Of a stretch of 64,000 nt of DNA, positions 11,200 through 61,183 are shown piece after piece. Where the stretch lies: contig CM082595.2 in assembly GCA_040954595.2 (NCBI GenBank), positions 6,412,137 to 6,476,136 on the forward strand, given 5' to 3'. The first letter of the stretch is position 1. Every line of letters starts with the position of its first letter. A program made the position numbers and the translations under genes. The DNA is from Balanoglossus misakiensis (Eukaryota > Animalia > Hemichordata). The notes under the pieces were generated by a model. It saw only the letters and a program-made list of their open reading frames with translations. It was not told the DNA's origin and did no database searches.

Positions 11200-11268
11200 T
11201 CCTTAAACAAAATACTCATACACAACCAACAATGCAGTGCTCATGTCAAAATCACACAAAACTTTATT
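11200..11268 (-). terminator. Putative polyadenylation signal of the neuropeptide mRNA
   Basis: AATAAA on the minus strand (TTTATT at 11263-11268), ~490 nt after the stop, followed by a GU/U-rich stretch (ttgttggttgtgtatgagtattttgttt). An alternative ATTAAA lies at 11659-11654. Confidence 0.6.
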
Positions 11269-11760
11269 TCCGACTAAACGAAATCAAAATGTCAAGCCAG
11301 TTATACTTAACGGAAAATTCCCATTCGAAATTCATTAGTCTGTGTATATTCTCGACAAATCAAACCAACATCAAGAAATTCTCGTATAATCAGAAATATG
11401 TACACCATGTAAAATACTATATTCTGTTACCATTATGCATATATTGAAATCATAACGCCAACAGAAACACCTCATCAGGCAACAGTGCGCCTGCGCCGAC
11501 CTTAAGTCTGGCTGTGAGGGTGCATTGGTTCGAACAGGTGCAAGAGTGGTAGTTAACAATTAACTTTTATGCTAAGACACTATTTTCACGAATCTATCAT
11601 CTTTGTTATCGAGATCAATCAATTCTGTGAAGAATTGCTTTTGTTCTGCAAACTTTAATCTATCCAAGAAAGCCTCTGTGGTAAGAAAATAAAATTTGGG
11701 GGTTGTAGTGAAAGGCCATCACGAATATTTCGATACGAAGTGCAATACTTGGGATATGTG

Positions 11761-13206
11761 TTATTCGTCTGCGTTTTCTTCGTCTGGTAACGATCTCTTT
11801 TCTTCTTCTCTCTTACCGAGAACGTCGAATCCTCCGACACCGAAATCTGGCTTGGCTTTCTTTCCTAAGACATCAAACCCTCCAACACCGAAATCGGGCT
11901 TAGCTTTCTTTCCGAGAACGTCGAATCCTCCGACACCAAAATCGGGCTTAGCTTTCTTGCCGAGAACGTCGAAGCCACCAACACCGAAATCTGGTTTAGC
12001 TTTCTTGCCGAGAACGTCGAAGCCACCAACACCGAAATCTGGTTTAGCTTTCTTTCCAAGGACATCAAACCCTCCAACGCCGAAATCGGGCTTAGCTTTC
12101 TTGCCGAGAACATCGAAGCCACCAACACCAAAATCGGGCTTAGCTTTCTTGCCAAGAACGTCAAATCCTCCTACACCGAAATCTGGTTTAGCTTTCTTGC
12201 CGAGAACGTCGAAGCCACCAACACCGAAATCGGGCTTAGCTTTCTTGCCGAGAACGTCGAATCCTCCGACACCGAAATCGGGCTTAGCTTTCTTGCCGAG
12301 AACGTCGAATCCTCCGACACCGAAATCGGGCTTAGCTTTCTTGCCGAGAACGTCAAATCCTCCTACACCGAAATCTGGTTTAGCTTTCTTGCCGAGAACG
12401 TCGAATCCTCCGACACCGAAATCTGGTTTAGCTTTCTTGCCGAGAACGTCAAATCCTCCAACACCGAAATCTGGTTTAGCTTTCTTGCCGAGAACGTCGA
12501 ATCCTCCGACACCGAAATCGGGCTTAGCTTTCTTGCCGAGAACGTCAAATCCTCCTACACCGAAATCTGGTTTAGCTTTCTTGCCGAGAACGTCGAAGCC
12601 ACCAACACCGAAATCTGGTTTAGCTTTCTTTCCAAGGACATCAAACCCTCCAACACCGAAATCTGGTTTAGCTTTCTTGCCGAGAACGTCGAATCCTCCG
12701 ACACCGAAATCGGGCTTAGCTTTCTTGCCGAGAACATCAAATCCTCCGACACCGAAATCTGGCTTGGCCTTCTTTCCGAGAACGTCAAATCCTCCGACAC
12801 CGAAATCAGGCTTAGCTTTCTTTCCAAGGACATCAAACCCTCCAACACCGAAATCTGGTTTAGCTTTCTTGCCGAGAACGTCAAACCCTCCTACACCAAA
12901 ATCGGGCTTAGCTTTCTTGCCGAGAACGTCAAATCCTCCGACACCGAAATCTGGCTTGGCCTTCTTTCCGAGAACGTCAAACCCTCCAACGCCGAAATCT
13001 GGCTTGGCTTTCTTTTCTCCTTCAAATCTCCTCCTCTTTCCTCTACTGGCGCTTATTCTTTTCCCAGTTCCCCTGCAGTAAAACCCAATGGTTTCAAGTT
13101 GAAAGTCAAAGCATGGCTGTGATCGTCGTTTGCTTATTTGATGTGGTTCTGTTTCCGATCTCAGATTGTTCACGTGATTTTTCAATGAATCTGTTAGACT
13201 TCTTTT
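11761..13206 (-). CDS. Neuropeptide precursor, main coding exon: 25x AKPDFGVGGFDVL-amide, one Cys-bridged peptide and spacers (481 aa; full precursor ~504 aa)
   Basis: Part of ORF 11761..13212. Preceded on the minus strand by a polypyrimidine tract and acceptor (ctttttctttttggcttttgcAG|AAA AGA), so the track's TTG 'start' is intronic. Peptides are bounded by KK/KR/KRR sites with Gly amide donors, the C-terminal tail is acidic (EEEKRSLPDEENADE) and the stop is TAA at 11763-11761. Confidence 0.93.
   Translation of the reverse strand, partial: KRSLTDSLKNHVNNLRSETEPHQISKRRSQPCFDFQLETIGFYCRGTGKRISASRGKRRRFEGEKKAKPDFGVGGFDVLGKKAKPDFGVGGFDVLGKKAKPDFGVGGFDVLGKKAKPDFGVGGFDVLGKKAKPDFGVGGFDVLGKKAKPDFGVGGFDVLGKKAKPDFGVGGFDVLGKKAKPDFGVGGFDVLGKKAKPDFGVGGFDVLGKKAKPDFGVGGFDVLGKKAKPDFGVGGFDVLGKKAKPDFGVGGFDVLGKKAKPDFGVGGFDVLGKKAKPDFGVGGFDVLGKKAKPDFGVGGFDVLGKKAKPDFGVGGFDVLGKKAKPDFGVGGFDVLGKKAKPDFGVGGFDVLGKKAKPDFGVGGFDVLGKKAKPDFGVGGFDVLGKKAKPDFGVGGFDVLGKKAKPDFGVGGFDVLGKKAKPDFGVGGFDVLGKKAKPDFGVGGFDVLGKKAKPDFGVGGFDVLGKREEEKRSLPDEENADE
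11809..13008 (-). repeat. Coding 48-bp tandem repeat, 25 units, with a 4-unit (192-bp) higher-order pattern
   Basis: 400 aa = 25 x 16 aa. Units differ at synonymous positions only, except the last, which ends KR. Diagnostic variants recur at 192-bp spacing: 'ctacacc' at 12171/12363/12555 and 'ggcttggcc' at 12761/12953. Confidence 0.95.
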
Positions 13207-13245
13207 CTGCAAAAGCCAAAAAGAAAAAGTTCAGATTAATATAAG

Positions 13246-13291
13246 ATAATGTAATATAATGTAATGTAATGTAATGTAATATAATATAATG
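13246..13291. repeat. (GTAAT/ATAAT)n pentanucleotide microsatellite just upstream of the splice acceptor
   Basis: Direct reading. Confidence 0.85.
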
Positions 13292-13346
13292 TTGCCTTGA
13301 GTAAAATATGATAAAAGTTTAAGACTTTGATTTTTTATGGTACATA

Positions 13347-13555
13347 CTGTAAAACACTTTATTTTCGCGAGTTTAAATTTTCGCGATATCCAGAGAGACC
13401 ACTGTTTCGCGAGTATTAATTTTTGCGCTCTCTTATTTCATTCACTGCATCGTTGTATTTTTAAAAAAGTGTACGCGACTTTTTATTTTCACACTATTTT
13501 GGCTCTCGCGTATTTCGTGAAAATTTATTGCTCGCGAAAATAAAGTGTTTTACAG
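13347..13555. mobile_element. 209-bp MITE with perfect 25-bp TIRs and TA flanks (Tc1/mariner-like non-autonomous element)
   Basis: TA|CTGTAAAACACTTTATTTTCGCGAG ... CTCGCGAAAATAAAGTGTTTTACAG|TA, with internal repeated TTCGCG motifs. Confidence 0.88.
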
Positions 13556-14868
13556 TACTACCTTAAATCAAAATATTTTCCAGTTGGTTTTGGAAGTGGG
13601 CGAAAAGGCATGCCCCATGCTTTCGTAAGAACATTTATATTTATGGCCTGGTGTGTAAACGAGCAGCCACTTGCCATTCTGGTACCAGGTTGATAAATGG
13701 CGGGCAAATGACCAATTGAGACCTCATTTGGACTACCGTTTTTTCGAGTGTTTTGTCTCATCAAGCTGTGCAAACAACTCTGCACTTTGCTTTCGCGAAC
13801 AGTTGCAAGTGGCCACAGTTATTGAATTCTTTGTTTCACGTCCTCTCAAAAAAAGTTTCACAGTTTTTGCGAGCCAACGAGCTAAACCATGTGGCCACAA
13901 TGATTGAATGTACTGCGTTTGCCAACAAACCGTACACCCGTTGCTAACAAACAGTTCAGCATGTATTAATTTGCACCTTCTGATATAAAAGGAGTTAACA
14001 CTAGTAAGCATAATGCCCGCATATGGTTAAAAAGTCATGTCAAAGTCTTAGCTGACCTATGTTGGTGGTCTTTTTATGTATGCCACCCAAATAAAATTCT
14101 GTGGTTCGTTAATTCCTCTTTAGTTGTGATGAAATTTGCATGCGTGATCATATTCACAGATGATTCTATCCATCACTTTATTTGGGGTGTTCACCAAGAA
14201 AACATAAAGGTGTCATGTATGCTTCTTGGCCGTCTACATTAATCGAACAAAACAAACTGAACATCGCGATTGAGTCGTGACTATAAAACTCGAAGGCAGT
14301 GCTTACTCATTCGCGATCCATTACTGCAAAGATCGCACCGGAGGTCGTTGTGCAGAGGCTCTTAAAAGAAACACTATACAATCACAAATATAGGCATCCA
14401 CTCTACTGAATTGCTAATGTTCAGGTTTCTAGTCTGAAAACAAAAATAGATATCATCGCGCAACATATTTTGGCGAAAAGGACTTTGTAATGGCTTGTGA
14501 TGACATTAATGTGCTTTCCGATGCAATTTTATTCACATCTGCGTCTTGATACCAATATTACTGTTTTGGATAAGACGCTGATCCTGAACTAACAATTTAC
14601 GTCTTTCCGATAAAGTTTGTTTCGGTCTGTCGCACTTTGTAAAAGCACGTGCAGTACTAGAATGCAGTGAAGTGTCCGACAGGAATTGTCAGTCAAGACA
14701 TGTAGGTTGTTTATTGGCTTATATCCGGCGTTCAAATAATGTGATCGTTGATACTAACTTACTCATGCGAGCGTCGCGACATAACCTACATTTGGATAAA
14801 AAATACTGATTGTCAGTGCTATGTATAGGCACGTTTATCCATATCCATTGCTTATTATGGTCGGCAAA

Positions 14869-14899
<31 letters not shown>

Positions 14900-14905
14900 T
14901 TGTTG
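14869..14905. repeat. (GTT)n microsatellite
   Basis: Direct reading. Confidence 0.9.
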
Positions 14906-17900
14906 AGAGCCTCTTGGTATAATATACAGGGTCAGACAAGCATTGTCTTCGTTTGTCATCAATTGAATTGAATTGAAATGAATACTCCACCACGACACTG
15001 ATATTTCCTATTGCAGTGTGAGTCTCATGAAAGGACACTTCTAATCTGAAATAGAATATGGCGCTCACGAATCAATTTCCGGATTTCAAGTTGGCTTAAT
15101 CATTGACAATGCGCCTCTACTGTCTCTGTGACTTAATCTGTGCTGCCGTGTATGTCCTGTACACATCACGAGCAGCAAAACAACGAGCTGTATACGGTCA
15201 TGCCATTAAGCACTGGAAGGGCGCGTTGACAGTCTTGGAAATGTTTTCAAAGGAAAGCAGGTTTCAGCTGACGGGCATATCATTTTGATCAAGCGCGTCT
15301 AACATTGCTCATTTACAACGATAAATTGTCACACCTGATGACCTGCTATTGATTTGTAAAGCAGACATGTCATCGAGGCTGAGCTGGAGACGTCTCAGTA
15401 ACGCGAGTTGTCTGGGACTGGAATTGTGACCTGTATCTATCGCACCCGTGTGGTTTGGTGAAGGGAATCTTTTCACGACAACTTGACGTGTGTTGAAGTT
15501 TCCATGAGTGGAGTTGATTAGCAGATGTGGCAGTCAAGTGGCCTCTTTTCGGTTAAGCCATCGTGTGCCTGTTTCTGTCTGCCTTGCGCACAAGTCAACC
15601 AAAACTGACATATGTTCTGCACGAGACCCTGCAAGATTTCGTGTGGCTAGGCAATTTACACATGTGATCAATTTCATGACAGAGGACAATGTAACACAGG
15701 AAAAACAATACCTGGCCCATTGTGTTCAACGGCTAAAAAGTTACAATTTTATTGTTAAACTCTCCTCCTATATTCTACTTTCATACAAAGCTTGATTATA
15801 TTTACTAGATACCAACCCGCTGCTATGACAACTGACCAAATCTCGCGAGATCTCGCAATGAGCGAAAATGGTCTATTTATAGTACCTGAGATTCTCCGTC
15901 GGTGATGAAAATATGAACTTGAGGGTACACAGCATGTGGTCTGCACTAATCTATGGGTACTGCGCAGTGCATTTTTCAGAACCGGGAAAACAAATATACC
16001 GACACTTAGTCCGCTACTGTGCAAACTCTAACTACATGCAGAGTGCTGTTGGGTTGGTTACCTTGGTTTCTAAATCATTTTTCGCGGCCATGGTCGTTCA
16101 CAACTAGTTTTTATTGGAAATAGAACCAGATGGTCGTAAATTAGAAATAATTGTTCGGGACTTTGTACTTAAATTTGAATCGACAATACAATATCACAAT
16201 TTTTCAATCACATAAATAGTCTGCAAAGCCCAAAACCAGACAAATGACGAACTTTCTCCAGGTGTTGATCGCGACAACGATATGCATCATGGCGACATCT
16301 TGTGTTGAACGTTGGGGGAGGGATAGAATAGAGACAATGAACTGTCGTCAGCCTTCTTTTCCCCCTATTTTCTACTTTAATCGATTAATTTGTGAATGAC
16401 GGATGCAAGTCAGTCAGCCACTTTCCCACTGCAGATGTCTTTGCACGACAAAATTAAACCTATTGAAATTTTTTACAAAACAACTAAAAAGTCAAAACTG
16501 ACGGAAAATCAATTTCGGCTATTCGTTTGAGTCGCTTGCGGGAAGAGCTTCTAAATTAACACGGACTCCTAAAGCCGGCAGTCTTTTATGGAACATGTTT
16601 TCGCGAATCAATTTGAAAGAAACGACTACGCGAGAAGAACCTTGTCTTTTACAGAATTATTTTGTAATAATCCTTGGTTTGAGGGAAAAATGAAAATATA
16701 AGACAGCCTTTTCAGTTTCGCGTGTACATCTAAAAAATACCTACATGGATGGACGAAATCTGATTTGAAGTGCTTTTATGGGTATTAGGATAAAACTAAT
16801 ATACAAAATTGTCGCTCGGTAAACGAACCGAGTAATTTCCGTTGGGTTTGACCGATAAGCAGCCATGCTGAAATGGAATTATCTTTCAAGGATAGACGCC
16901 ATTATGAAACAGGGAATTCTGGGAATTCCCAAACATTTCTATCTTGTATGTTTTTGGGAAGCAACCAGGGCATTGATCTTTTATTTATACTATACTGTTA
17001 ATCATGGCAACAGACATTATGGTGTGTTGTTTTCCCCATAAAATAGTCTGGGCTCTGTGTTTATTGCTTTAAAGACTTTGCTAATGAGAACACTCCTCAC
17101 ATTCATATTTAAAATGGCCGCCAAACTAGTTGTTAATTCAATAGGAAAACTCATTTGTTGATAACGAATAAAAAGAGGTGAACATTTTATTGTATTAGCC
17201 TTTAATGGTTTAGAACAAGCTACAATGTTATAGCCAATAGGCGGAAGAATTACTAATTAATAATTCTCAGTTGCATTTCCTGTATCAAAGGTAGTAAATT
17301 GTTCAACCATAGTGTTCATGTTCGTGGTATTCGGATTGGAGGTGACGCGACAGGAAATATTTAAAAATTAATCTGAATGTGATTCTGCTCTGACGCCGAG
17401 AAGGTCAGCCAAGACTTTGTTTGACAAATCCTGGCAAATTCTCATGCGTTTTAGTTTTGTAACATTATACATCCTTTAAAAGGCCAATACTGTGTGGTCT
17501 TGTTTGAACACATGCCCAAGTTCCTATTGACATTGCCAGACGTGTAAAAGCGTTCAATATTTGACTGCGAACTTTTGCAATTGTGGTTTGGTTTGTTTTC
17601 GTGACCTGTGCGAATTGTAAGATCACGGCTGAACGCAAGCCGGATAATTGAAATTTCCGGTCTGCTTGCTCCAACCATACACATTCTCTGTTCTGACTAC
17701 ACGTACTTACAATATATAACCAGTGGCGCTATTTCTTGCCACTTTACACTTATTTGCCTGGGAGTCTGTTTGTTCAGGTTTTCCCACCTATCAACATAAT
17801 GTACACTTCCAATTTCACGTAATTGACTAGACAACATAGCTGACTTTACAAAGTACATGTATTTGCAGCACTGACTATAATCTTTGTCACAGCACTTAGA

Positions 17901-17958
17901 CATTACGCACAGATTCAGTGGCATAGAATTACACATTACGATGTCCAAGTAATTTGCA

Positions 17959-17979
17959 TAGATAGATAGATAGACAGAA

Positions 17980-18045
<66 letters not shown>

Positions 18046-18061
18046 TATTAGACAGATAGAT
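17959..18061. repeat. (GATA)n microsatellite
   Basis: Direct reading. Confidence 0.96.
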
Positions 18062-21000
18062 TATCTTTTCATGGAATGTTAACCTTTAGCTCCTGTACAC
18101 TGGTGTACGTCACTTTATTCTGTTACTTCTACATCTGTGTTAAAATGTAATAATGGTGATGCTTCTCTCTGTTTCGGAAGAATAGTCTAATGGCTCGATT
18201 GTGATCAGATGGCAAGCAGATACAATCGCTACCGACGTTGCACACATTGCCTCATCTGGCGAGTCAGGCAGCGTTGACGAGGAAAAAACACATTCCCAGA
18301 GTGGACTAAATGGAAGAGTTTAATCATAGTAGATAATGCTTGGATGATTGCCCGACTTTCTAAACATAGGTGCATTACTGAACATAAATCCCCTGATTGC
18401 AGGTCACATGAACATACATATGTTCAAGGGTCAGTGATCTCTGGAAAAATGAAGTCAGCCGACAGTAAATGTATGAAGTAACAGAATAGAAGCATGTCGA
18501 AATTTTTCATTCAAATATCTACATTTGTAACGTTCACTTTTGTTACATTTTGCGTGATTTGATAGCTAATCATAACATATTTCACCAATATAGTCCATGC
18601 ATGTTGCTTTTCCAACTATTCTTACTCACCCTGTGGGGGTTTGAGCAGACAAGGATAAAATTTAGCCGCATGCTTCAACCAAACCAAGTGAAGTTGTTAC
18701 ACCACACCCATCTGCATGTGCGTGTACATGCGGTCAACCCCACTAAAGTGTGAAAATAATTAATGTTTTTTACGGCAATGAATATTCTCTGTGTACAGTA
18801 TAATTACAAACCAACGTCCTAGTGTAGCATATTGTGTGTTACCATCAAATTTCCATGTAAATTAAAATCACAGAATCGCGGATCTTCAAGCCTTGTGTTC
18901 GACAGTATCATTTATGTTTAGTTTACAAATCTTGCGGTTTAATTTGACCGTCTGAGTTACTATAAGATGTGGTTATTATTCCCACCCTGATATAATATAC
19001 ATTTGTAGCGCCCATGTACCCTATAGCACCACTTAGATAAGCAGGAAATAATGCAAAAAATCATGAATAATATTAGGCCTATGCCTGAAATATTAATCAG
19101 ATGTATCATAGCGTAACCTATCAATTCCCAGAAAAAGCATAAACCTGAAATTAGTATGAAAATACATTGATTAAAAAAATAGTTTAGTTTAATGATTCAT
19201 ATAGAATGCGTCTATTATGTTCATGTTAACACTTTCAAAAAATGAGTATAACAAATTGAATATTCTCTTCAATTTTAGAATTTCATGTGACCAAACATGT
19301 TAATTTAGCACGTGAATTCGTAACATGGTCACAGAATATTTGTCTACTATTTATCCGAATTTTATAAAACAGACAAATTAATCATGTGAGGCTATGATCA
19401 TTGGTGAGCAATGTTTAAAGAGGCGGTAGCTGTAACTCTTTGTTTTCCTTTTTGCTTGGGAACAAATACAATGCTTCATTCTGCCTTGTAAACATATCAA
19501 TATTCTAAATATTTTACTTGGTTTAATTTGCATATAGCCAATAGGGTTACTGGTGTGATGACATGTGACTTGGAGTCTAGGAATTCATATGTATTCATGT
19601 TTACATGATGGGTTAAAGACAGATTTGGTGTTTAAGCATGTTTTAGGGAACAGATAAAATACATCAAAAAGAGGAATTTTGTTCCGTAGGCCGGCAAGGG
19701 TGCAAATTAAAGCGTCCTTCCAAAACCCTATCAACTCTACTGAAACCATCATAGCAATGCAGTGTCTTTGTTGCCATAGCAGTGAGCGTGCAACAGAAGC
19801 TCTACCAGTAACCATCCTCATTAAGGGTATTTTGCGAAGCTCTAAATTTTGTTTCAAAAGCATGTTTATTCATTATTAAGATGGGGAGATGTCACATCTG
19901 TCCATGACCTTTGACCAACAAAGAGCTACTCAGGACTTCCCTACCTCTACAACCAAACCGATGAAAATCCATAAATTTTGATCATGGCAAGTTTAAAACC
20001 AGGGAATGATCTTTCATCAATGAAAATGTGCCATTTATCCTATAATATCATAAGTGATGACCTTCGCATTTGGGTGTTATATTCTTTTGTATTTTATTTT
20101 GGTTTTATTTCATTTTTTAATTCATAATTATTCTTTGTAATAGTCTTACTAATTAGCGTCGTAATACTGACCTGAAATATAATTTAGCGCTGCTGTCCGC
20201 GTGTTCGTGTTCAGTGATATGGTCTGATCTGTTCTGGACTGGACGAGACACTTAATGGTTTTAATCGCTTTGAAGCAATCAGTGATTTACACGGACCACA
20301 TTCTGCGCTTTTCTTTAAATATTAATGAAAGCTGTTCGTGTATTAATTAATTTTTAATGACGTAACTCCACGTAATATCTTGTGTTTTTGACAAATGCAT
20401 ATTTTATTGAATGAATTGAAACTCCTGGGAATGGCGGCAATATCAAATGAAACAAATCCTAACTACAAGACAATAAATAGATCGTGAAAAGTTCGTTTTG
20501 CAATTGAAACTCGCATTGTATTCATAAGAAAAAACGATGATATATTTTGATATTTGATGGTTTTGATTTCCATTTAATATTTTACCCAGTATGCAATAAA
20601 GATGTCCAATTTGACAATCACCTCGAAGGTAGCCAATTGTGTACACTATGGAAAAATTTAAAGCAATGGTTGCCTGGTGACGGTGTAATGGTTGCAAATT
20701 AGTTCCAATATCGGTCAAGAACACCGGTGCCAGACAAAAATGCAGAGGCATAACTTCCCGCCAAAACCGGATAGAAGGCTAAACGATAGCCCGCATTTGC
20801 CCTTCTCTGTGATTCGAAGTGCCAGTGATGGCTAATTGTCACACAAAATAGAAAATCACACATTTTCAGGTCGTCGGCACGCCTATAATCCAAGTACAGT
20901 ACATTTTATCCTCTAGGTTCGTTCAGACAAGCCCACAACTTAACCTTTCGAAATTAAGCTGCCTCAAAAGACAAGCGGATCAGCCGTGTGTTTGAAGGGT

Positions 21001-22768
21001 AATTCGCTGACAAATTGACCACTACACTTAAGTCATTACACGCTCTCCTATATTACTCCTCAAGTGTCTTTTAGCTTTGAAGTGAATAACATGTGTAAAT
21101 CACGCATGGAGTATCTGATGTGTTCTACTCAACTTTGTTTGCCGTCGTGTGCCTACATCTGGCTCGCTGCCGATGTATTAAAAATACATGAATCTTATTT
21201 CTCGGGATGTAGAAAGCCCTTAAATTTCTAAGCGTCTTGTCAATTTCATCCGGAGTTTCACGGGAAAGGGAAATATGCCTTTCTGAATCGCCACTTTCTG
21301 AGAGCTTTATAACTTTCAAAAAGGAAAATTCAATTCAGCATTAGCTGTTAATCTTTAATCTTCGCCAAATACACAAAGAGATACCGTACGTTTCTTAGAG
21401 ATGACTCGGTATACTCTCTTTCGGTTTAATGACGCGAAAAGCCGGATGAACTTCTCCTCGCAAGCCGATAGGATTTCCTATAATGTAATTTTTTTTAAAT
21501 TCATTTTTTTTATTTATTTACTGAAGATCGTTTTGCCGCAAGATATTTTTTCATCCCTGCCACTCAAACTTTTCCTTTCATCACCTTTTTTGATTGAAAA
21601 ATGCTCTGAAACTGGTATTGTGGTGGGATTTTTGAAAGATGCCATTTTTGATGTAAACACCATGACGGCAGGATGTTCCATCTGGCTACTGCGAATCTGA
21701 GTTGTCGTTCTTTCTGTTGGTTCTTTGCTCGGCCGTGCAACCCAGTACCCAAGAATGTAACACATAGGCGGTACCTCCCCTACTGTTTTCCTAGTACAAT
21801 TTTACCGCCAAAACTGTAACAAAATTTCTCGTTGGGTCGATAAATTCACACAGTATGGTACCTATTCGAGATAGGGACATTTATAACCTGAAAATTCATC
21901 ATTGCGGTCCAAAATAAACCACCCAACCATACAGTTTGCGCAAAACGATTTTCTAATAACCAAATTGCTTATTATTAAAAATCATTACAATACGTTATCT
22001 GGGGACAGTGATATTAATGGAAGAAATCTGCTTTATTATCTCCAAAATTGAATAGTAAATTATTCATATTTTGCTTCTCAATTGCCAACATTAAGCAAGA
22101 AAGACTCTTGAGCTAAATAGATTATAATTCAGCCCCCACTGCGCGAGATAACAGTATAGGTAAGAACAACGTGTATTGTTCTAATACAGATATACAAATC
22201 AGTGGGAATAAAGTAGAGGAATGATGGATTTCTGCTTTGATTAGGTGAATTTGGCAAGAAATACTAATGTATAATTTCAAGTTCCAGCTGGATGGTAATA
22301 TCTGGATCTTACCTTTTTATGACAATCATGATCTATGGGCCATGAAATGTGGGCTTTTTCAACTTTTGACTGTACAAAGCCAAAACGTCAAAACTAAGAT
22401 TATGAGAAATATCGCCTAGAAAGGTAGCAGACTGATATCATTCAGAATGTAAAAAATGTTTTTTGACTCTTGATAGCAGAACAAAAAATCAGTTATCGTA
22501 TCGAAACGTTTTGATATCGCCGACGGCTTGATTTATTATACACTTAAAATGCTTTTTACTTCGCAGATGTGCGTTTCTATGACAACATTTCCATTTTAAT
22601 GTACCACCTAGTGAGAACTCGGGCTGGACCTCTGCGGTAATGGGGCTGCCTCGGCCGAAGAGAAAATTCATCCACGGCTGGCCCACGCACTGCGTTCAAG
22701 TGACATCAAATTCACTTACAATGGTAGGTGTATTGCATTGAGAATAGTCGAGATGGCTGAAAACTTAC

Positions 22769-22837
22769 CGCTTTTTCTTCGTCGGCTTTGGTTACGAAGA
22801 TCACACAGGCTAACGATAGGACGAGTAGAATTTTCAT
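22769..22837 (-). CDS. Neuropeptide precursor, coding exon 1 (signal peptide): MKILLVLSLACVIFVTKADEEKA
   Basis: Reverse complement reads gaagATG AAA ATT CTA CTC GTC CTA TCG TTA GCC TGT GTG ATC TTC GTA ACC AAA GCC GAC GAA GAA AAA GCG|GTAAGT. It has A at -3, a basic N-region, a hydrophobic core, a T-K-A cleavage context and a consensus GTAAGT donor (22768-22763) in phase 0, matching the phase-0 acceptor at 13206. The join of the two exons is inferred. Confidence 0.85.
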
Positions 22838-22894
22838 CTTCGCTTCACTGCGGGTGGACGTCGATGCGACGTCGTCTCTGTACTGTAGGGCCCA

Positions 22895-23085
22895 CTAATG
22901 CGTATGGCTGGACAACCACGTCCGGTTGCTATTTAACCCTCCTCCTGCGAAGTGAACAAACAGAGCACTTATGAGTGTCACGCTCACAAGACGAGAAACA
23001 AAGTGGTGGCGCGGTTTTAATTAGAGTGATATTTGAATAGGGAATTTCGCCTGGGCGGCCGCGGTAATTTAACATGCAAATGTCC
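22895..23085 (-). promoter_or_regulatory. Putative core promoter of the neuropeptide gene
   Basis: TATA-like TTAAATAG on the minus strand at 22936-22929, ~95 nt upstream of the ATG (implied TSS ~22895-22905). A GC-rich GGGCGG lies near 23053 and an octamer ATGCAAAT at 23074-23081. Motif-level evidence only. Confidence 0.5.
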
Positions 23086-45700: not shown

Positions 45701-46059
45701 TACTACACAATGCAACAATTTAGAATGTGTGTCGCTAGCGGAAGCTGAAAAATCGATACATCCGTTCTGTAAATGTTTATAGGTCCTGTAAAGCTCAATT
45801 TGTTCGTCCTTTTCGTCACATGTTCCAAACTAATTCACTTTGCGATTAATGTACCAAGTCACAGCATCACATTACATCAAATAAAGTTATCTTGGCGTAC
45901 ATTACTGTTTGAGACAACTCTATGCTTTGTTGTTAGTAAGGTGTCTGTATGCGTTTATGGTGTGGACAACAGGGCTATAGTCAGGAGCATATTTCTTTAG
46001 CCGTGCTCAAACACTACGGTACAAAAACTGTCCATTTTGCCTGTTCCTGTATCTGACAA

Positions 46060-46760
46060 GCGCGAACATCCACCCTGGGCTCGTTACACCCAGCCGCGCT
46101 CAACTTCAATATGCAAATATGTCGCGCTTTCATCAAACCCATCAAACAGGAATCACTCAAACCGCCCAACTTGGCGCGTCCTCAAGACAATCACCTCTTC
46201 TCCCGCCATTTTCCTTGCCACATCAACGCATTCAATCACCCGCGGCCGTTCCATTCGGTTCACTTATTCCCCAGACAGTTAACACATCGCTTTGCCATCT
46301 TACACATCTTACCATCCGTGCCTTCAACTGACATGTCATCTGTTCGTCCATCTTGCCACAACCCACCTGGTCATCTGGTCACCAGCTCTGAAAACCATCG
46401 TTCACCCATACATGCGTCATATTTCCTACTAGTTCAACCCGCCCATGTGTTCATCATCCAATCTCATATCCGTATATTTCTTTCATCTCCATTCCTCAAT
46501 CGAACTTTTGTCAATTGATCCATACACCCACCCACCCTGTCACCCCCTCAAATTCCCTGTCAGATGATTACCCAAGTTACTTAGAAAGTGCAAACTTTTT
46601 TACACCAATCAGCTAATTCGCCCTCTCAATCGGCCCCTTCAACAACCCAACATCTTACCCCAATCCACCTACTACCTCATTCACTGATCGCCTTTCAACC
46701 CACCCACTGTCGTCGATCAATTTAATTGTATCCCTTAAATTCAATCCAATATCAAACTTT
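46060..46760. repeat. C/A/T-rich low-complexity tract (decayed CCAT/CCAC-type repeat)
   Basis: Strong G depletion on the + strand and recurrent ccatc/ccaccc/tcatc words. Confidence 0.6.
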
Positions 46761-49700
46761 AAACAGCCTTCTGTCTGCCATTACCTTAAAACACTGATCA
46801 GTACAACATCTCAACATGGAACTCATCCAATACTTTCTGCTACAACGGCCTGTGAGTCGATTGCGTGAAATATCAAATGCCACCGACAAGGTATAAATCG
46901 CTTCTCGACTAAGTGCCAATAAACAGCAACATCAGACTGTTATGCCTCTTATTGACTGCGAGGCATTCGTCTTATCGGGGGAAAGGGCTTAGCTCGGCAT
47001 TGTGCTCAAGCGGTTAAGTCCTAAACCGCCGCGGGCGTCTGATCAGCGCAAAGAGCGGAGATAAATGCTTCTCGTGTTTCCAGTTTTCAAAATTTATCTA
47101 TAAAAGCGCAGTTTATCAATAAGTGTAAATACAAAGTAACGTTTTCTTATTTTTAGAACTGGTTCAGTTAGTAGATGTAGTATTGTGTCAACCAGTCATG
47201 CAAGACAAAATCGTATTGTAGGCTGTATCTGGTTTTACTACAAACTATGTTCTTTATAAAACTCTTTTTCTTGGAACAGTCTACACTTTTACTTGTGAAT
47301 TTTCCACTTTTGTCCTGGGGTATAGGATTCAAATTTTCGTTCCATCAGTACTTCCTATTCGTGGCACATTGTTGGTATTTCGTGTCCCATTCTTACCGGG
47401 AAGCTGTCACATTTATGTATTCAGTTGTTCCATATACACCATGTGAGCAGGACTCCTCCTGCCTGTGCGAATAGCGAAACGAGGTCTGTCAGTTTCAACT
47501 GAAGGCCCACTTTCTCTTGAACTTAATTGAGAGCGATCGGCTAAGGTTCAACCTGGGAAACGAGGGGCACACGTTTCAAATCATGTAGATGTCAAACGAT
47601 TTCGTGTAACAAAACACGACGAATTCCCAAAAGAAAATTAGTCATTTCAACTCACCCTTCCACAGCATCAGTGCCGTCGGCAATATTATCTTTGCATTGA
47701 AACGCTTTGTTCTCTATGAATATCGCACCGGGCTTCAATGATATTAAACACGTGACTCTCTGTGATTTTTACAGTTTGGCCTTTGATTTTGCTTTGCGTA
47801 TCAGATGTTTCACATCGATGACAAAAGGTTCTCATTCATCCCTGTCTCCCTAGATACATTCTCGATTAGCTATGCATTTCTAGTGAAGAATTTCAGTCTC
47901 GTTTGCAGGGTCTACATTTTTATGACTGCATGAATGTATGATATTGTCAGCCTGGTACTTGTTTCTATTACACAGACATAAAACATGCAATTTTTGATTA
48001 AAAGTATGTCTTAAAATTCTTAAGAGACACATCTGGTTGTTTTCTGAGCAACGCTGGAATGACCTGAATATTCGCCTCCCCCTAATGTTCCTTGCAAATC
48101 CCGTTTACTGTCTACTCAAACTGTTCTCTAGTGTTGCTTCGTTTGTATTTTGTTGGACAGACCCTACTCATCCGACTTTGATTAGAAGTATGGTTTACCC
48201 AAATTCCAGACTTTTTTCTTGATAAACCGAGAACGACCCTTATTTTTCCTGGCTGTAGTACCCAGCAAGACAGCCCCCCCCCCCTTCCGAGGAGACCGTA
48301 TACTTGCATGTAAACACCGTCCAACTGCCCTGCGAAATAACGTAAGTCTTAACAGATTAGCCAAGCCGAGCCGCCTTTGCCAAAGCAGCGTGGCCGTGAC
48401 ACAGGTATTAGGAGACACAAACTCGTCATGGGAATGTATCGGCCTTGTGTCGTTATTTCCCTAATCCACCTCGTTCACACCGGCGAGACCAACGAACATT
48501 TCCTGAGAGGCTAAGCACCAGTTGCTAAGTCTAAAGTATTCATGCACCGGGAGTATCAAAATCAACTTGTACTTTTAAGCTCAACTGTAATCTTACTGAT
48601 TGTAGCTTGGGGGGGGGGGTATTTTTTCAAATTCATCAAATATGTAGATTCGTTGTTTAAGTCATGTCGTATGCTAAAGCACCAGGTGTTCAGCAAGTCT
48701 ACAATGCGCATCTGGGTAAAATACATATTCATTATTGGCCATAACATGTGCACTCCTTTTCATGCAGCAGACGCGAAAGCATACATAAGAACAAATAGCA
48801 TCGGCGTTGGCTGACAGGTTTAGAGACTCTGTACCACTGTGGTAGTGGACACTCCTTTTGAAACTCTCGATTTTGTTCGAGGATGTCACATACAATAAAC
48901 GCCGCGTTGTCCACTTGGGTCTGTTAACAAATCACTGCCACAGCCCAGCCTTCAGAAGAACTCGTCACTCGCGAATGAATCACACAATCTCCCCTTAACA
49001 GCAAATGCTCAGCGAAGCCTTCCGCAGAGAAATGTATAGACTGCCAGACTTAGACAAAACAACACATTATTTCACTTACATGTATAACAGTGTATACACT
49101 GTTCAGTACGATTACGGTAATCTATGTCGATATCATATCAACTTTTTCATATATTTACTCACAAGACATAGGCCATAATTTACTCCGTCTAAGCAAAGAA
49201 ACGCGATCATATACCAAATTGTCGAAACATTTCATTGGCCTATAAGAAGTCAAATTAGCTGCCTCAAAAATGAGTATAACATGCTGTCTCTGTTAGACAT
49301 CGATCATCAAGGAAATGGGTGGACGCTTTTAGGAGAATGTTGTAATGATCTAGATAGATGGAAATCAGATCTACATCCGAACCCTGGTGTGTGTACTTTC
49401 TGCCTCGTACAGTACTGTACTGCCAGGCGAGTGAAGACGATATGTCCCTGTTTGGGTCCGCTCCCCGCCGTCTTATTACCTGCGTTCGTTTGATCTGATT
49501 TGCCGGTGATTTAATCATTTTATCTGCGGTCCTGGTTATTACGTTCTCCGGCGAGACAATAAGAGAAGGCTGTCAGTTTCCGGACTTGACGGAAACATAA
49601 CGGAACCTTTAATTCATCAGTGGCGGCCGACAGCCAAGGAATGATGAACAACCCTCTCTGCCTTTTAATTAGTAACCTTCGCGTTATAGAGGAATCGAGC

Positions 49701-54848: not shown

Positions 54849-55161
54849 TATTATATTATACCAGTATATTGATGGTGTAAATCACGCTATTTGATTGGTC
54901 GAGACACGACACGTGACCATGATATATTAGCCATATACCACAGTCATATATCATAGTTAAAGAAAATGCCTTTTTAAAATGTTTTATGCAAAGTTTCAAT
55001 ATACTGGCATAATATAATAGCAATAAAACACCCCCAGCCATGGTATACCACTCGATTTTGACCAGTTCAACTCCATATACGCACTCGCTATCGCTCGTGC
55101 GTATATGTCGTGAACTGGTCAAAATCTCGTGGTATACCATGGCTGGGGGTGGTTTATTGCT
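54849..55161. mobile_element. Palindromic non-autonomous DNA element with two adjacent stem-loops
   Basis: A 24-bp inverted repeat (54849-54872 / 54996-55019, 1 mismatch) is followed by a near-perfect ~143-bp hairpin at 55019-55161 (AGCAATAAA..CCCCCAGCCATGGTATACCAC..GATTTTGACCAGTTCA..CATATACGCAC / GTGCGTATATG..TGAACTGGTCAAAATC..GTGGTATACCATGGCTGGGGG..TTTATTGCT). Confidence 0.8.
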
Positions 55162-56415: not shown

Positions 56416-56683
56416 TTTCTGTTTATGAACACACCAACTTTTTTCCAACTGTTCAGGGAGACCCTGCCAACCAATACATGTTATATCAAAGTAAACTGAA
56501 AATGTGATAACAAGTAACGACGCGTTGTTTACTATGACATGCAGTGTTATACAAATAACAACCACGTTGTTTGCAATGGTGTACATTATAGCGGCTGCAC
56601 TTTGTGCCTTATTTTACTTGCTAGCAACTGCGTTGTATGGGACCGATACAGGCAGCCATAGATGTGGGGACACCCTCCTTTTG
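56416..56683 (+). repeat. Dispersed repeat copy A (~270 bp), homologous to 60911-61183 in inverted orientation
   Basis: Shared blocks such as GTTCAGGGA.ACCCTGCCAAC.AATACATGTTATATCAAAGTAAACTGAA.ATGTGATAA and GCTAGCAA.TGCGTTGT.TGGGACC.ATAC. The spurious ORFs at 56504 and 60811 are visibly similar for this reason. Confidence 0.85.
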
Positions 56684-60910: not shown

Positions 60911-61183
60911 TTTAAAGAGAAGGTGTCGCCCCGTCTGCGGCTGCGGGTATGGGTCCCACACAACGCAATTGCTAGCCAGTCAAAGTAGGTGCAAAACATA
61001 ACTGCGACAATGTACATAATTGCAATAATGTAGTTTTTACTTTGTATTAAGATGAACGTCATGGTAAACAATGTGTCGTTACTTTTTATCACATCTTCAG
61101 TTTACTTTGATATAACATGTATTAGTTGGCAGGGTGTCCCTGAACTGTGGGAACAATGCTGATGGTGTGTTTGTACACAGAAG
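60911..61183 (-). repeat. Dispersed repeat copy B, beginning at TTTAAAGAGAAGG (possible TTAA-target DNA transposon end)
   Basis: The reverse complement aligns by eye with 56416-56683. Confidence 0.85.

Follow-up and report, generated by a model that had tools for sequence, protein, structure and literature searches.

Pedal peptide/orcokinin (PP/OK) precursors are, by a partial and unproven likeness of sequence, the nearest named family to the repeated peptide described here. No receptor was known for this family as of PMC5656890, and it was left open whether PP/OK was lost outside the echinoderms among deuterostomes or merely diverged there (PMC5656890, PMC5069636). Sea cucumber members end in non-aromatic hydrophobic residues, three to six residues past D-P-L (PMC6586643). 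A precursor of annelid type with amidated repeats flanked by G-K-K is also known, and in echinoderm precursors KK is counted among the sites of cleavage. Many precursors of comparable design have been assigned to no family, with 19 from crinoids (PMC9793003) and seven from sea cucumbers (PMC11868395). Orphans of this kind are routine among invertebrates, and unless it proves to be a truncated PP/OK, the present gene is one more of a familiar type. It offers ready testable ligands with predicted masses, a dominant amidated 13-mer and a looped 19-mer, for a signalling system unnamed in the sources searched.

The predicted gene lies on the minus strand of the window, which is the whole 64-kb stretch of DNA analysed. 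Coding exon A (22769 to 22837; 69 nt, 23 codons) starts with ATG and ends with a phase-0 donor, GCG followed by GTAAGT. Coding exon B (11761 to 13206; 1,446 nt, 481 codons and a stop) is preceded by a long pyrimidine tract and CAG. Both the signal-peptide exon with its GTAAGT donor, at 22837-22769, and the phase-0 acceptor opening the large exon before 13206 had been proposed in the first-pass annotation and were recovered here. The DNA between them would form a phase-0 GT-AG intron of 9,562 nt (13207 to 22768). Joining the exons (22837-22769 to 13206-11761) gives 504 aa and a stop in a single frame, and re-translation returned the product earlier reported at this length, with 24 KK-ended units and a final KR-ended copy. 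The stop-to-stop frame of exon B contains no Met; ORF-based annotation would overlook the gene because its start is 9.6 kb away.

By a simple in-house score, the exon B acceptor ranks in the top 4 of 3,464 minus-strand AG sites and the exon A donor in the top 11 of 3,723 minus-strand GT sites. A combined filter for a signal peptide and a phase-0 donor was passed by one candidate in the 50.8 kb upstream of the acceptor, exon A itself (1/1), and by none on the 64-kb plus strand; the thresholds were chosen with exon A known, so that the plus-strand control is the informative part. Within the predicted intron, no further exon of phase 0-0 stood out as a strong candidate. From the sequence we infer that a gene with the exon A-exon B junction is highly likely to be real, and the splicing, expression and processing of its precursor are predicted on the same basis.

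Exon A encodes a heuristically predicted signal peptide with a basic residue at position 2 and a hydrophobic core at about residues 3-15 (hydropathy about 3). Cleavage is likely after Ala18, with small residues at -3 and -1, and would leave DEEKA as the remainder of the exon. A non-amidated segment of 23 aa (13132 to 13200) follows between KR and KRR and may be a spacer or a minor peptide. Next come a predicted single-copy amidated peptide of 19 residues (13063 to 13122) with two Cys, C-x11-C-R-G-T-amide, whose predicted MH+ is 2208.98 with a disulfide, and a predicted pentapeptide, ISASR-amide (13039 to 13056). The single-copy peptides are parted from the array by R-G-K-R running into the tetrabasic KRRR (13027 to 13044), a site of furin type; the furin consensus is R-x-K/R-R. 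The array itself is composed of 25 units of 48 nt (11809 to 13008), each encoding AKPDFGVGGFDVL-G-K-K, or G-K-R in the last. All 25 copies of AKPDFGVGGFDVLG are identical, with KK after 24 of them and KR after the final one, and every unit (25/25) thus ends in a Gly amide donor and a dibasic site. The 13-residue AKPDFGVGGFDVL-amide has a predicted MH+ of 1320.70 and, with one Lys and two Asp, is net neutral to slightly acidic. An acidic C-terminal tail with one KR (11764 to 11808) closes the precursor. Of the general features of multi-copy neuropeptide precursors, a signal peptide (by heuristic), dibasic-bounded repeats ending in Gly, and purifying selection are present.

Variant codons in the array comprise 19 synonymous changes and one non-synonymous change (p about 2e-11 against site counts), the latter being K to R at the last cleavage site, and this excess indicates that the coding frame is under selection. 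Across the 25 units, 18 distinct DNA sequences encode one peptide. Two distinct translated units are found in the coding frame, against 5 to 18 in the other five frames. An antisense ORF of 462 aa on the plus strand (11693-13081) was rejected as a shadow of the coding frame, since its units vary (five distinct among 24, versus two among 25). A higher-order period of four units (192 nt) is displayed by the array, with a mean difference of 3.57 at lag 4 versus 4.6-6.3 elsewhere (p 0.0012 over 12 lags); unequal crossing-over, adding roughly four units at a time, would account for the growth of the array. The earlier proposal of a functional precursor gene is supported by the purifying selection on the array, by the Met-less exon B with its unique upstream signal-peptide exon, and by the standard layout.

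A sequence match to a possible TATA box, TAAATA, is present at 22930 to 22935, where the first-pass annotation had placed a TATA-like element. Its role is less certain than its presence, for an AG at 22946-22945 ranks 56th of the 3,464 candidate acceptors by the same simple score, and its use could place TAAATA inside an exon with the true promoter further upstream. Downstream, the AATAAA and GU-rich tract noted before were confirmed: a likely polyadenylation signal at 11263 to 11268 begins 493 nt past the stop and is followed by a G/T-rich tract. A second candidate hexamer, ATTAAA, is found at 11659.

Searches of protein collections and of the literature brought up no close relative of the precursor, which agrees with the earlier statements that its peptides match no named family, the partial PP/OK likeness aside, and no near-identical annotated precursor was met in these collections. 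None of about 8,000 word-sharing candidates was a close relative in either of two comparisons, and the exact precursor sequence is absent from the protein collection searched. A phmmer search of 1.84 billion representatives returned 33 weak, repeat-driven matches, none at E 1e-30. No neuropeptide family of Pfam was matched; the hit to FapA_N (E 9e-10) was rejected as a sum of weak repeat matches over the array, no stretch of which passes alone (15 bits on a shorter piece against a cut-off of 27). A literature search for the motif found no publication, and DVLGK is missing from a neuropeptide supplement of 3.87 million characters. Among metagenome contigs, 193 protein-pattern matches yielded no confirmed case and a degenerate DNA pattern yielded none. 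One PDB match (E 0.19) was attributed to chance, and two ESM Atlas queries gave no usable match and are uninformative. An orthologue that has diverged and whose repeats differ in length could escape all these homology searches. No neighbouring gene was recognised when 341 of the 358 window ORFs of at least 55 aa were compared with Pfam, which gave eight weak matches, none at the curated cut-off; the other 17 were 16 microsatellite frames and one ORF overlapping the array end. Rfam gave no match in the window.

The locus very probably encodes a real neuropeptide precursor of standard design. The reading we moderately favour is a gene of two coding exons whose product is a secreted neuropeptide precursor from an unnamed, probably lineage-restricted family, yielding 25 copies of an amidated 13-mer and one disulfide-looped peptide. 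Within it, a neuronal or neuroendocrine role is quite probable, and the placing of the array peptide outside any named family is likely, if slightly less so. By established precursor biology, the signal peptide would take the precursor into the ER, and a furin-type cut at RGKR/KRRR may come first, parting the looped peptide and the array. Cleavage at KK and KR would then fall to PC2/PC1-type convertases, carboxypeptidase E would remove the basic residues, and PAM would turn Gly into the C-terminal amide. KK sites are cleaved less reliably than KR. Pro at position 3 of the array peptide would slow aminopeptidase attack. Given the product ratio of 25:1, most of the transmitter would consist of AKPDFGVGGFDVL-amide, accompanied by the looped peptide as a minor co-transmitter. 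By analogy, AKPDFGVGGFDVL-amide would most likely act on a GPCR, modulating muscle or cilia.

That the array peptide belongs to the PP/OK family is the strongest alternative, though we regard it as unlikely. An ungapped alignment pairs residues 5-13 with the start of starfish ArPPLN1a, five of nine being identical (F-G-V-G-G-F-D-V-L versus F-G-M-G-A-Y-D-P-L; PMC5656890), but this motif (shuffle p 5.5e-5 strict, 1.5e-3 relaxed) was fitted post hoc to one of very many peptides. Sea cucumber PP/OK peptides begin with F-G and are amidated (PMC6586643, PMC11868395), and a sea cucumber PP/OK gene has two exons (PMC6586643). Members of the family typically carry a hydrophobic residue, usually Phe, at or close to the N-terminus; in the array peptide, Phe first occurs at residue 5 of 13. 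Many related peptides between KR or KK sites are found here as in family precursors, which are multi-copy (12 to 21 copies). However, the echinoderm core is a mid-peptide (D/E)-P-(L/M) or D-(P/T)-L, whereas the array peptide has a terminal D-V-L with nothing after D-x-L, no C-terminal aromatic (Phe/Tyr), and no protostome N-terminal F/L-D-x-I motif. The only two amidated-neuropeptide-type precursors among the 33 phmmer matches are both snail pedal-peptide-type, and the 14+2 period of the array is frequent in lophotrochozoan pedal peptide 1; yet the snail match is displaced by eight residues from the register of the cleavage sites, and the in-phase alignment gives p 0.068 versus shuffles. If the gene is a truncated PP/OK of a hemichordate or cephalochordate, it bears on the question of loss versus divergence. 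A bolder version, to which we give little credence, is that this gene is the PP/OK orthologue reported missing from hemichordates (or another non-echinoderm deuterostome) and went unrecognised after a shift of the cleavage site in the array, being now cut after D-x-L and amidated. The out-of-phase snail match and the in-phase match to the starfish front would then record how circular permutation turned an older repeat into a new neuropeptide.

It is rather improbable that the precursor is real but non-neuronal, serving as a pheromone secreted in bulk, as a peptide of the egg coat or of gamete signalling, or as one of skin or defence, with the dose raised by 25 copies. Perfect identity of all copies suits a bulk product, and convertase-cut multi-copy precursors exist outside nerves, the beetle acaloleptin antimicrobial polyprotein being among the weak phmmer matches. 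The sperm-activating peptides of sea urchin egg jelly are likewise Gly-rich and multi-copy. Against this, the mature peptide lacks the positive charge of cationic defence peptides, selection has kept this array uniform where those for defence or reproduction usually diversify, and Gly-dibasic ends at every copy are typical of the regulated neuroendocrine route.

A wrong or incomplete gene model, with another or an extra upstream exon on exon B or a copy number that is an assembly artefact, is very improbable: the possible acceptor 5' of the ATG points to one or more further (untranslated) exons, repeat copy numbers of neuropeptide genes are frequently mis-assembled (PMC6586643), and the exon junction is predicted from genomic sequence, but exon A had no competitor in 50.8 kb, the intron no strong internal exon, and at least 18 of the 25 copies, being distinct in DNA, are not simple assembly duplicates.

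Compared with known looped peptides, the 19-residue peptide of the favoured neuropeptide precursor resembles elevenin/L11 in its two Cys, in C-R-G at the second, and in a dibasic site two residues later. L11, however, has C-x8-C and follows the signal peptide immediately, as a single peptide with no array; with C-x11-C spacing and a mid-precursor position here, it was rejected. The ambulacrarian MCH-type peptides share an Asp two residues past the first Cys and an Arg that follows the second; in them ten residues separate the two Cys, W-R is conserved, and the peptide stands alone at the C-terminus of a precursor of 88-91 aa. With Asp present but W-R absent, an 11-residue loop and a position that is not C-terminal, this assignment was also rejected. 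For the array peptide, a D-Y-G likeness to CCK/sulfakinin was discarded, as it has neither Tyr nor a C-terminal Phe-amide. The Saccoglossus VIamide/VLamide precursor, given by an EST identifier in PMC10508912, bears a name that implies the same C-terminal V-I/L-amide.

The precursor resembles the echinoderm PP/OK precursors ArPPLNP1/SMP and AjPPLNP2 (PMC5656890, PMC5069636, PMC6586643) in its signal peptide, its many near-identical peptides bounded by KR or KK, F-G near the N-terminus and a D-x-L motif, and the sea cucumber ones also in amidation and two exons. It differs from them in the four residues before F-G, in D-V-L instead of D-P-L, in the lack of a C-terminal aromatic segment, in the extra Cys-loop peptide, and in the identity of all 25 copies. 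Lophotrochozoan pedal peptide 1 and the snail precursors P0003, P0011 and P0051 agree in phase with the array peptide at G6, at F10 and in having a hydrophobic residue at 13, and P0003 has a 16-residue period with G-K-[KR] ends; they are set apart by the N-terminal F/L-D-x-I, missing here, and by a best alignment whose register does not fit the cleavage sites.

A degenerate pattern search of the whole window, allowing up to 2 mismatches, recovered exactly the 25 copies of the AKPDFGVGGFDVLG-type unit in the array (11809-13008, minus strand) and none elsewhere. The array comprises 18 distinct DNA units encoding one peptide. Of the differences from the majority unit, 97 fall on third codon positions, one on a first and one on a second; counted as distinct variant codons, 19 are synonymous and the sole non-synonymous one is a K to R change at the last cleavage site. 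Given 11.3 synonymous and 36.7 non-synonymous sites, the binomial p for 19:1 is about 2e-11. The five alternative frames contain 5 to 18 distinct units, with stops in four of the five. This synonymous excess and the variability of the other frames establish that the array is protein-coding and under purifying selection. Units at lag 4 are the most similar (3.57 differences vs 4.6-6.3; p 0.0012 over 12 lags), and Tandem Repeats Finder likewise gives a 192-nt period; unequal crossing-over that duplicates blocks of units would be expected to leave such a pattern.

The array lies in exon B (13206-11761, minus strand; 1,446 nt), which is preceded by a pyrimidine tract and CAG. Since its stop-to-stop frame has no Met, an upstream exon is required. 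A first-exon filter (ATG, basic n-region, hydrophobic core and phase-0 donor) was applied to the 50.8 kb of minus strand upstream of exon B and let through one candidate, the 69-nt exon A (22837-22769), beginning with ATG and ending at GCG/GTAAGT; applied to the window's entire plus strand, it let none through. By home-made splice and first-exon scores, with thresholds set with exon A in view, the exon B acceptor is among the four best of 3,464 AG sites and the exon A donor among the eleven best of 3,723 GT sites, and the intron yielded no strong candidate for an internal phase 0-0 exon. Joining the exons by coordinates reproduced the first-pass annotation: a predicted 22769 to 13206 junction in phase 0 and a 504-aa translation in which KK follows 24 of the 25 copies and KR the remaining one. 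The large intron it described on the minus strand spans 9,562 nt by the coordinates of the predicted exons. The 19:1 selection, the Met-less exon B and the sole passing upstream exon also favor, at the sequence level, its proposal of a functional precursor gene. A TAATG/CATTA pentamer microsatellite (13237-13292) lies immediately upstream of the acceptor's branch point and pyrimidine tract.

Candidate transcription signals were recognized from sequence words. The proposed downstream AATAAA and GU-rich tract are present (11268, minus strand, followed by a G/T-rich tract). The proposed TATA-like box is present as the word TAAATA (22935, minus strand), but its position relative to the transcript is less secure: an AG at 22946-22945, ranking 56 by the home-made acceptor score, may be an acceptor upstream of the exon A ATG, in which case the word would be exonic, with an untranslated exon further upstream. 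Several ACGTC/TGAC words, CRE-like by eye, occur around the candidate promoter (22855-22990). The TAAATA...CCATAC...TTAGT arrangement there recalls the 5' start of the Saccoglossus NNFamide mRNA in the available part of PMC10508912, a likeness probably due to chance or to a core-promoter layout of a generic kind.

Cleavage and amidation motifs are present in the 504-aa frame. Following established precursor biology, the precursor would enter the ER via a predicted signal peptide cut after Ala18, convertases would cut the KR/KK sites, and carboxypeptidase E would trim the basic residues before amidation by PAM. The predicted main product is 25 copies of AKPDFGVGGFDVL-amide (MH+ 1320.70), accompanied by one looped C-x11-C 19-mer amide (2208.98; encoded at 13063-13122, minus strand), ISASR-amide and acidic spacers. 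A single furin-type R-G-K-R/KRRR site separates the single-copy peptides from the array and could permit an early cut and separate sorting of the two, for which the Aplysia egg-laying hormone precursor is an analogue. By analogy, the peptide would most likely act through a GPCR, with a role on muscle or cilia.

The window has a GC content of about 39% and a CpG observed/expected ratio of 0.91. TACATGTA occurs 13 times vs 1.9 expected, along with eight poly-C/G runs of 8 or more and ACAT, AGAT and TGA microsatellites. Such features fit a marine invertebrate, whether ambulacrarian, lophotrochozoan or cephalochordate, and favor none of the three over the others. No other recognizable gene was found in 1-64000, where 341 ORFs of at least 55 aa lack a Pfam match at the curated cut-off, and no Rfam match was obtained; the locus lies in gene-poor DNA or is surrounded by small exons. 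An inverted pair (56432-56682 and 60914-61164; 251 nt, 77% complementary, 4.2 kb apart) is likely two dispersed-repeat copies or old transposon ends. A MITE-like, hairpin-like inverted repeat occupies 55019-55161 (51-nt arms, 94% complementary, 41-nt spacer). Region 46001-47000 shows strong C-over-G skew (-0.43) and raised GC (0.46), with two plus-strand Pro/His/Gln-rich ORFs of 116-153 aa having no Pfam match.

Word-index searches, scoring about 8,000 candidates each, gave no relative at E 1 among proteins of 264-842 aa or at E 10 among those of 79-254 aa. When a 161-aa piece was run with phmmer against 1.84 billion representatives, 33 matches reached E 0.001 and none 1e-30. Two of the 33 are, by inspection, multi-copy precursors of amidated neuropeptides and carry 22 and 18 Gly-dibasic sites; the others have 0 to 4 each (matches above 900 aa were inspected over the first 150 residues, the counts covering whole proteins). 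The snail proteins P0003 (Biomphalaria; labelled uncharacterised or FMRFamide-like) and P0011 cluster with a Plakobranchus 'pedal peptide protein'. In the alignment, however, the array unit's F-G and F-D-x-x-G fall across the cleavage site of the snail precursor, an 8-residue shift out of phase with p 0.015, a post-selection value chosen from a huge library; aligned in phase, the score does not reach significance (p 0.068). By sequence, the Biomphalaria glabrata precursor (P0003, P0034-P0036) is pedal-peptide-type with an amidation Gly on most copies, and these entries carry the labels 'uncharacterized' or 'FMRF-amide neuropeptides-like'.

No paper with the diagnostic peptide motifs was found in the full-text literature, subscription journals and figure-only sequences being outside its reach, and DVLamide and DVIamide had no occurrence in the full texts searched. 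Apart from two unrelated GGFD, the motifs are absent from the supplements of PMC10508912, PMC9793003, PMC5627052 and PMC6188537, with bioRxiv supplements outside the scope. The PMC8557429 supplement has no match to DVLGK; its available portion holds scattered four- and five-letter matches, the 11 inspected being unrelated or pedal peptide. In the accessible part of PMC10508912 the Saccoglossus VIamide/VLamide precursor is given solely as an EST id, and, compared by name alone, it could be an orthologue.

Membership of the array peptide in the pedal peptide/orcokinin (PP/OK) family is rather doubtful. The starfish peptide ArPPLN1a matches its residues 5-13 at 5 of 9 ungapped positions (PMC5656890, in part), and sea cucumber members share an F-G start and amidation (excerpts of PMC6586643, PMC11868395). 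However, echinoderm members are defined by a Phe close to each end and by (D/E)-P-(L/M) in the middle (PMC5069636, PMC9793003, in part), and the ophiuroid ones in the available text of PMC5627052 all continue past D-P-L, whereas the array peptide stops at a terminal D-V-L, without Pro and with no residue after it; moreover, an F/L-D-x-I start typifies lophotrochozoan pedal peptide 1 (PMC8557429, in part). Two defining features of the family were looked for and not found, and the array peptide was therefore not classed as a member. It is very improbable that the precursor is the missing non-echinoderm deuterostome pedal peptide; PP/OK peptides are reported as not found in hemichordates or chordates, though divergence might hide them (PMC5656890, PMC5069636, in part), and these reports are why host identity matters for this precursor. 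The looped peptide was rejected as elevenin because Cys spacing and position differ, and as MCH because spacing and position differ from those in the available parts of PMC9793003 and PMC4772807.

The first-pass annotation had matched the peptides to no named family, and neither the word-index, phmmer and literature searches, which gave no close relative, nor the comparisons with PP/OK, elevenin and MCH supplied one. The two-exon locus very probably encodes a genuine neuropeptide precursor, standard in its architecture, whose peptide is as yet unassigned. Such surveys commonly turn up orphan precursors: of 20 predicted in crinoids, 19 have no assigned family in the available text of PMC9793003, and two sea cucumbers yielded 7 new precursors (PMC11868395, in part).
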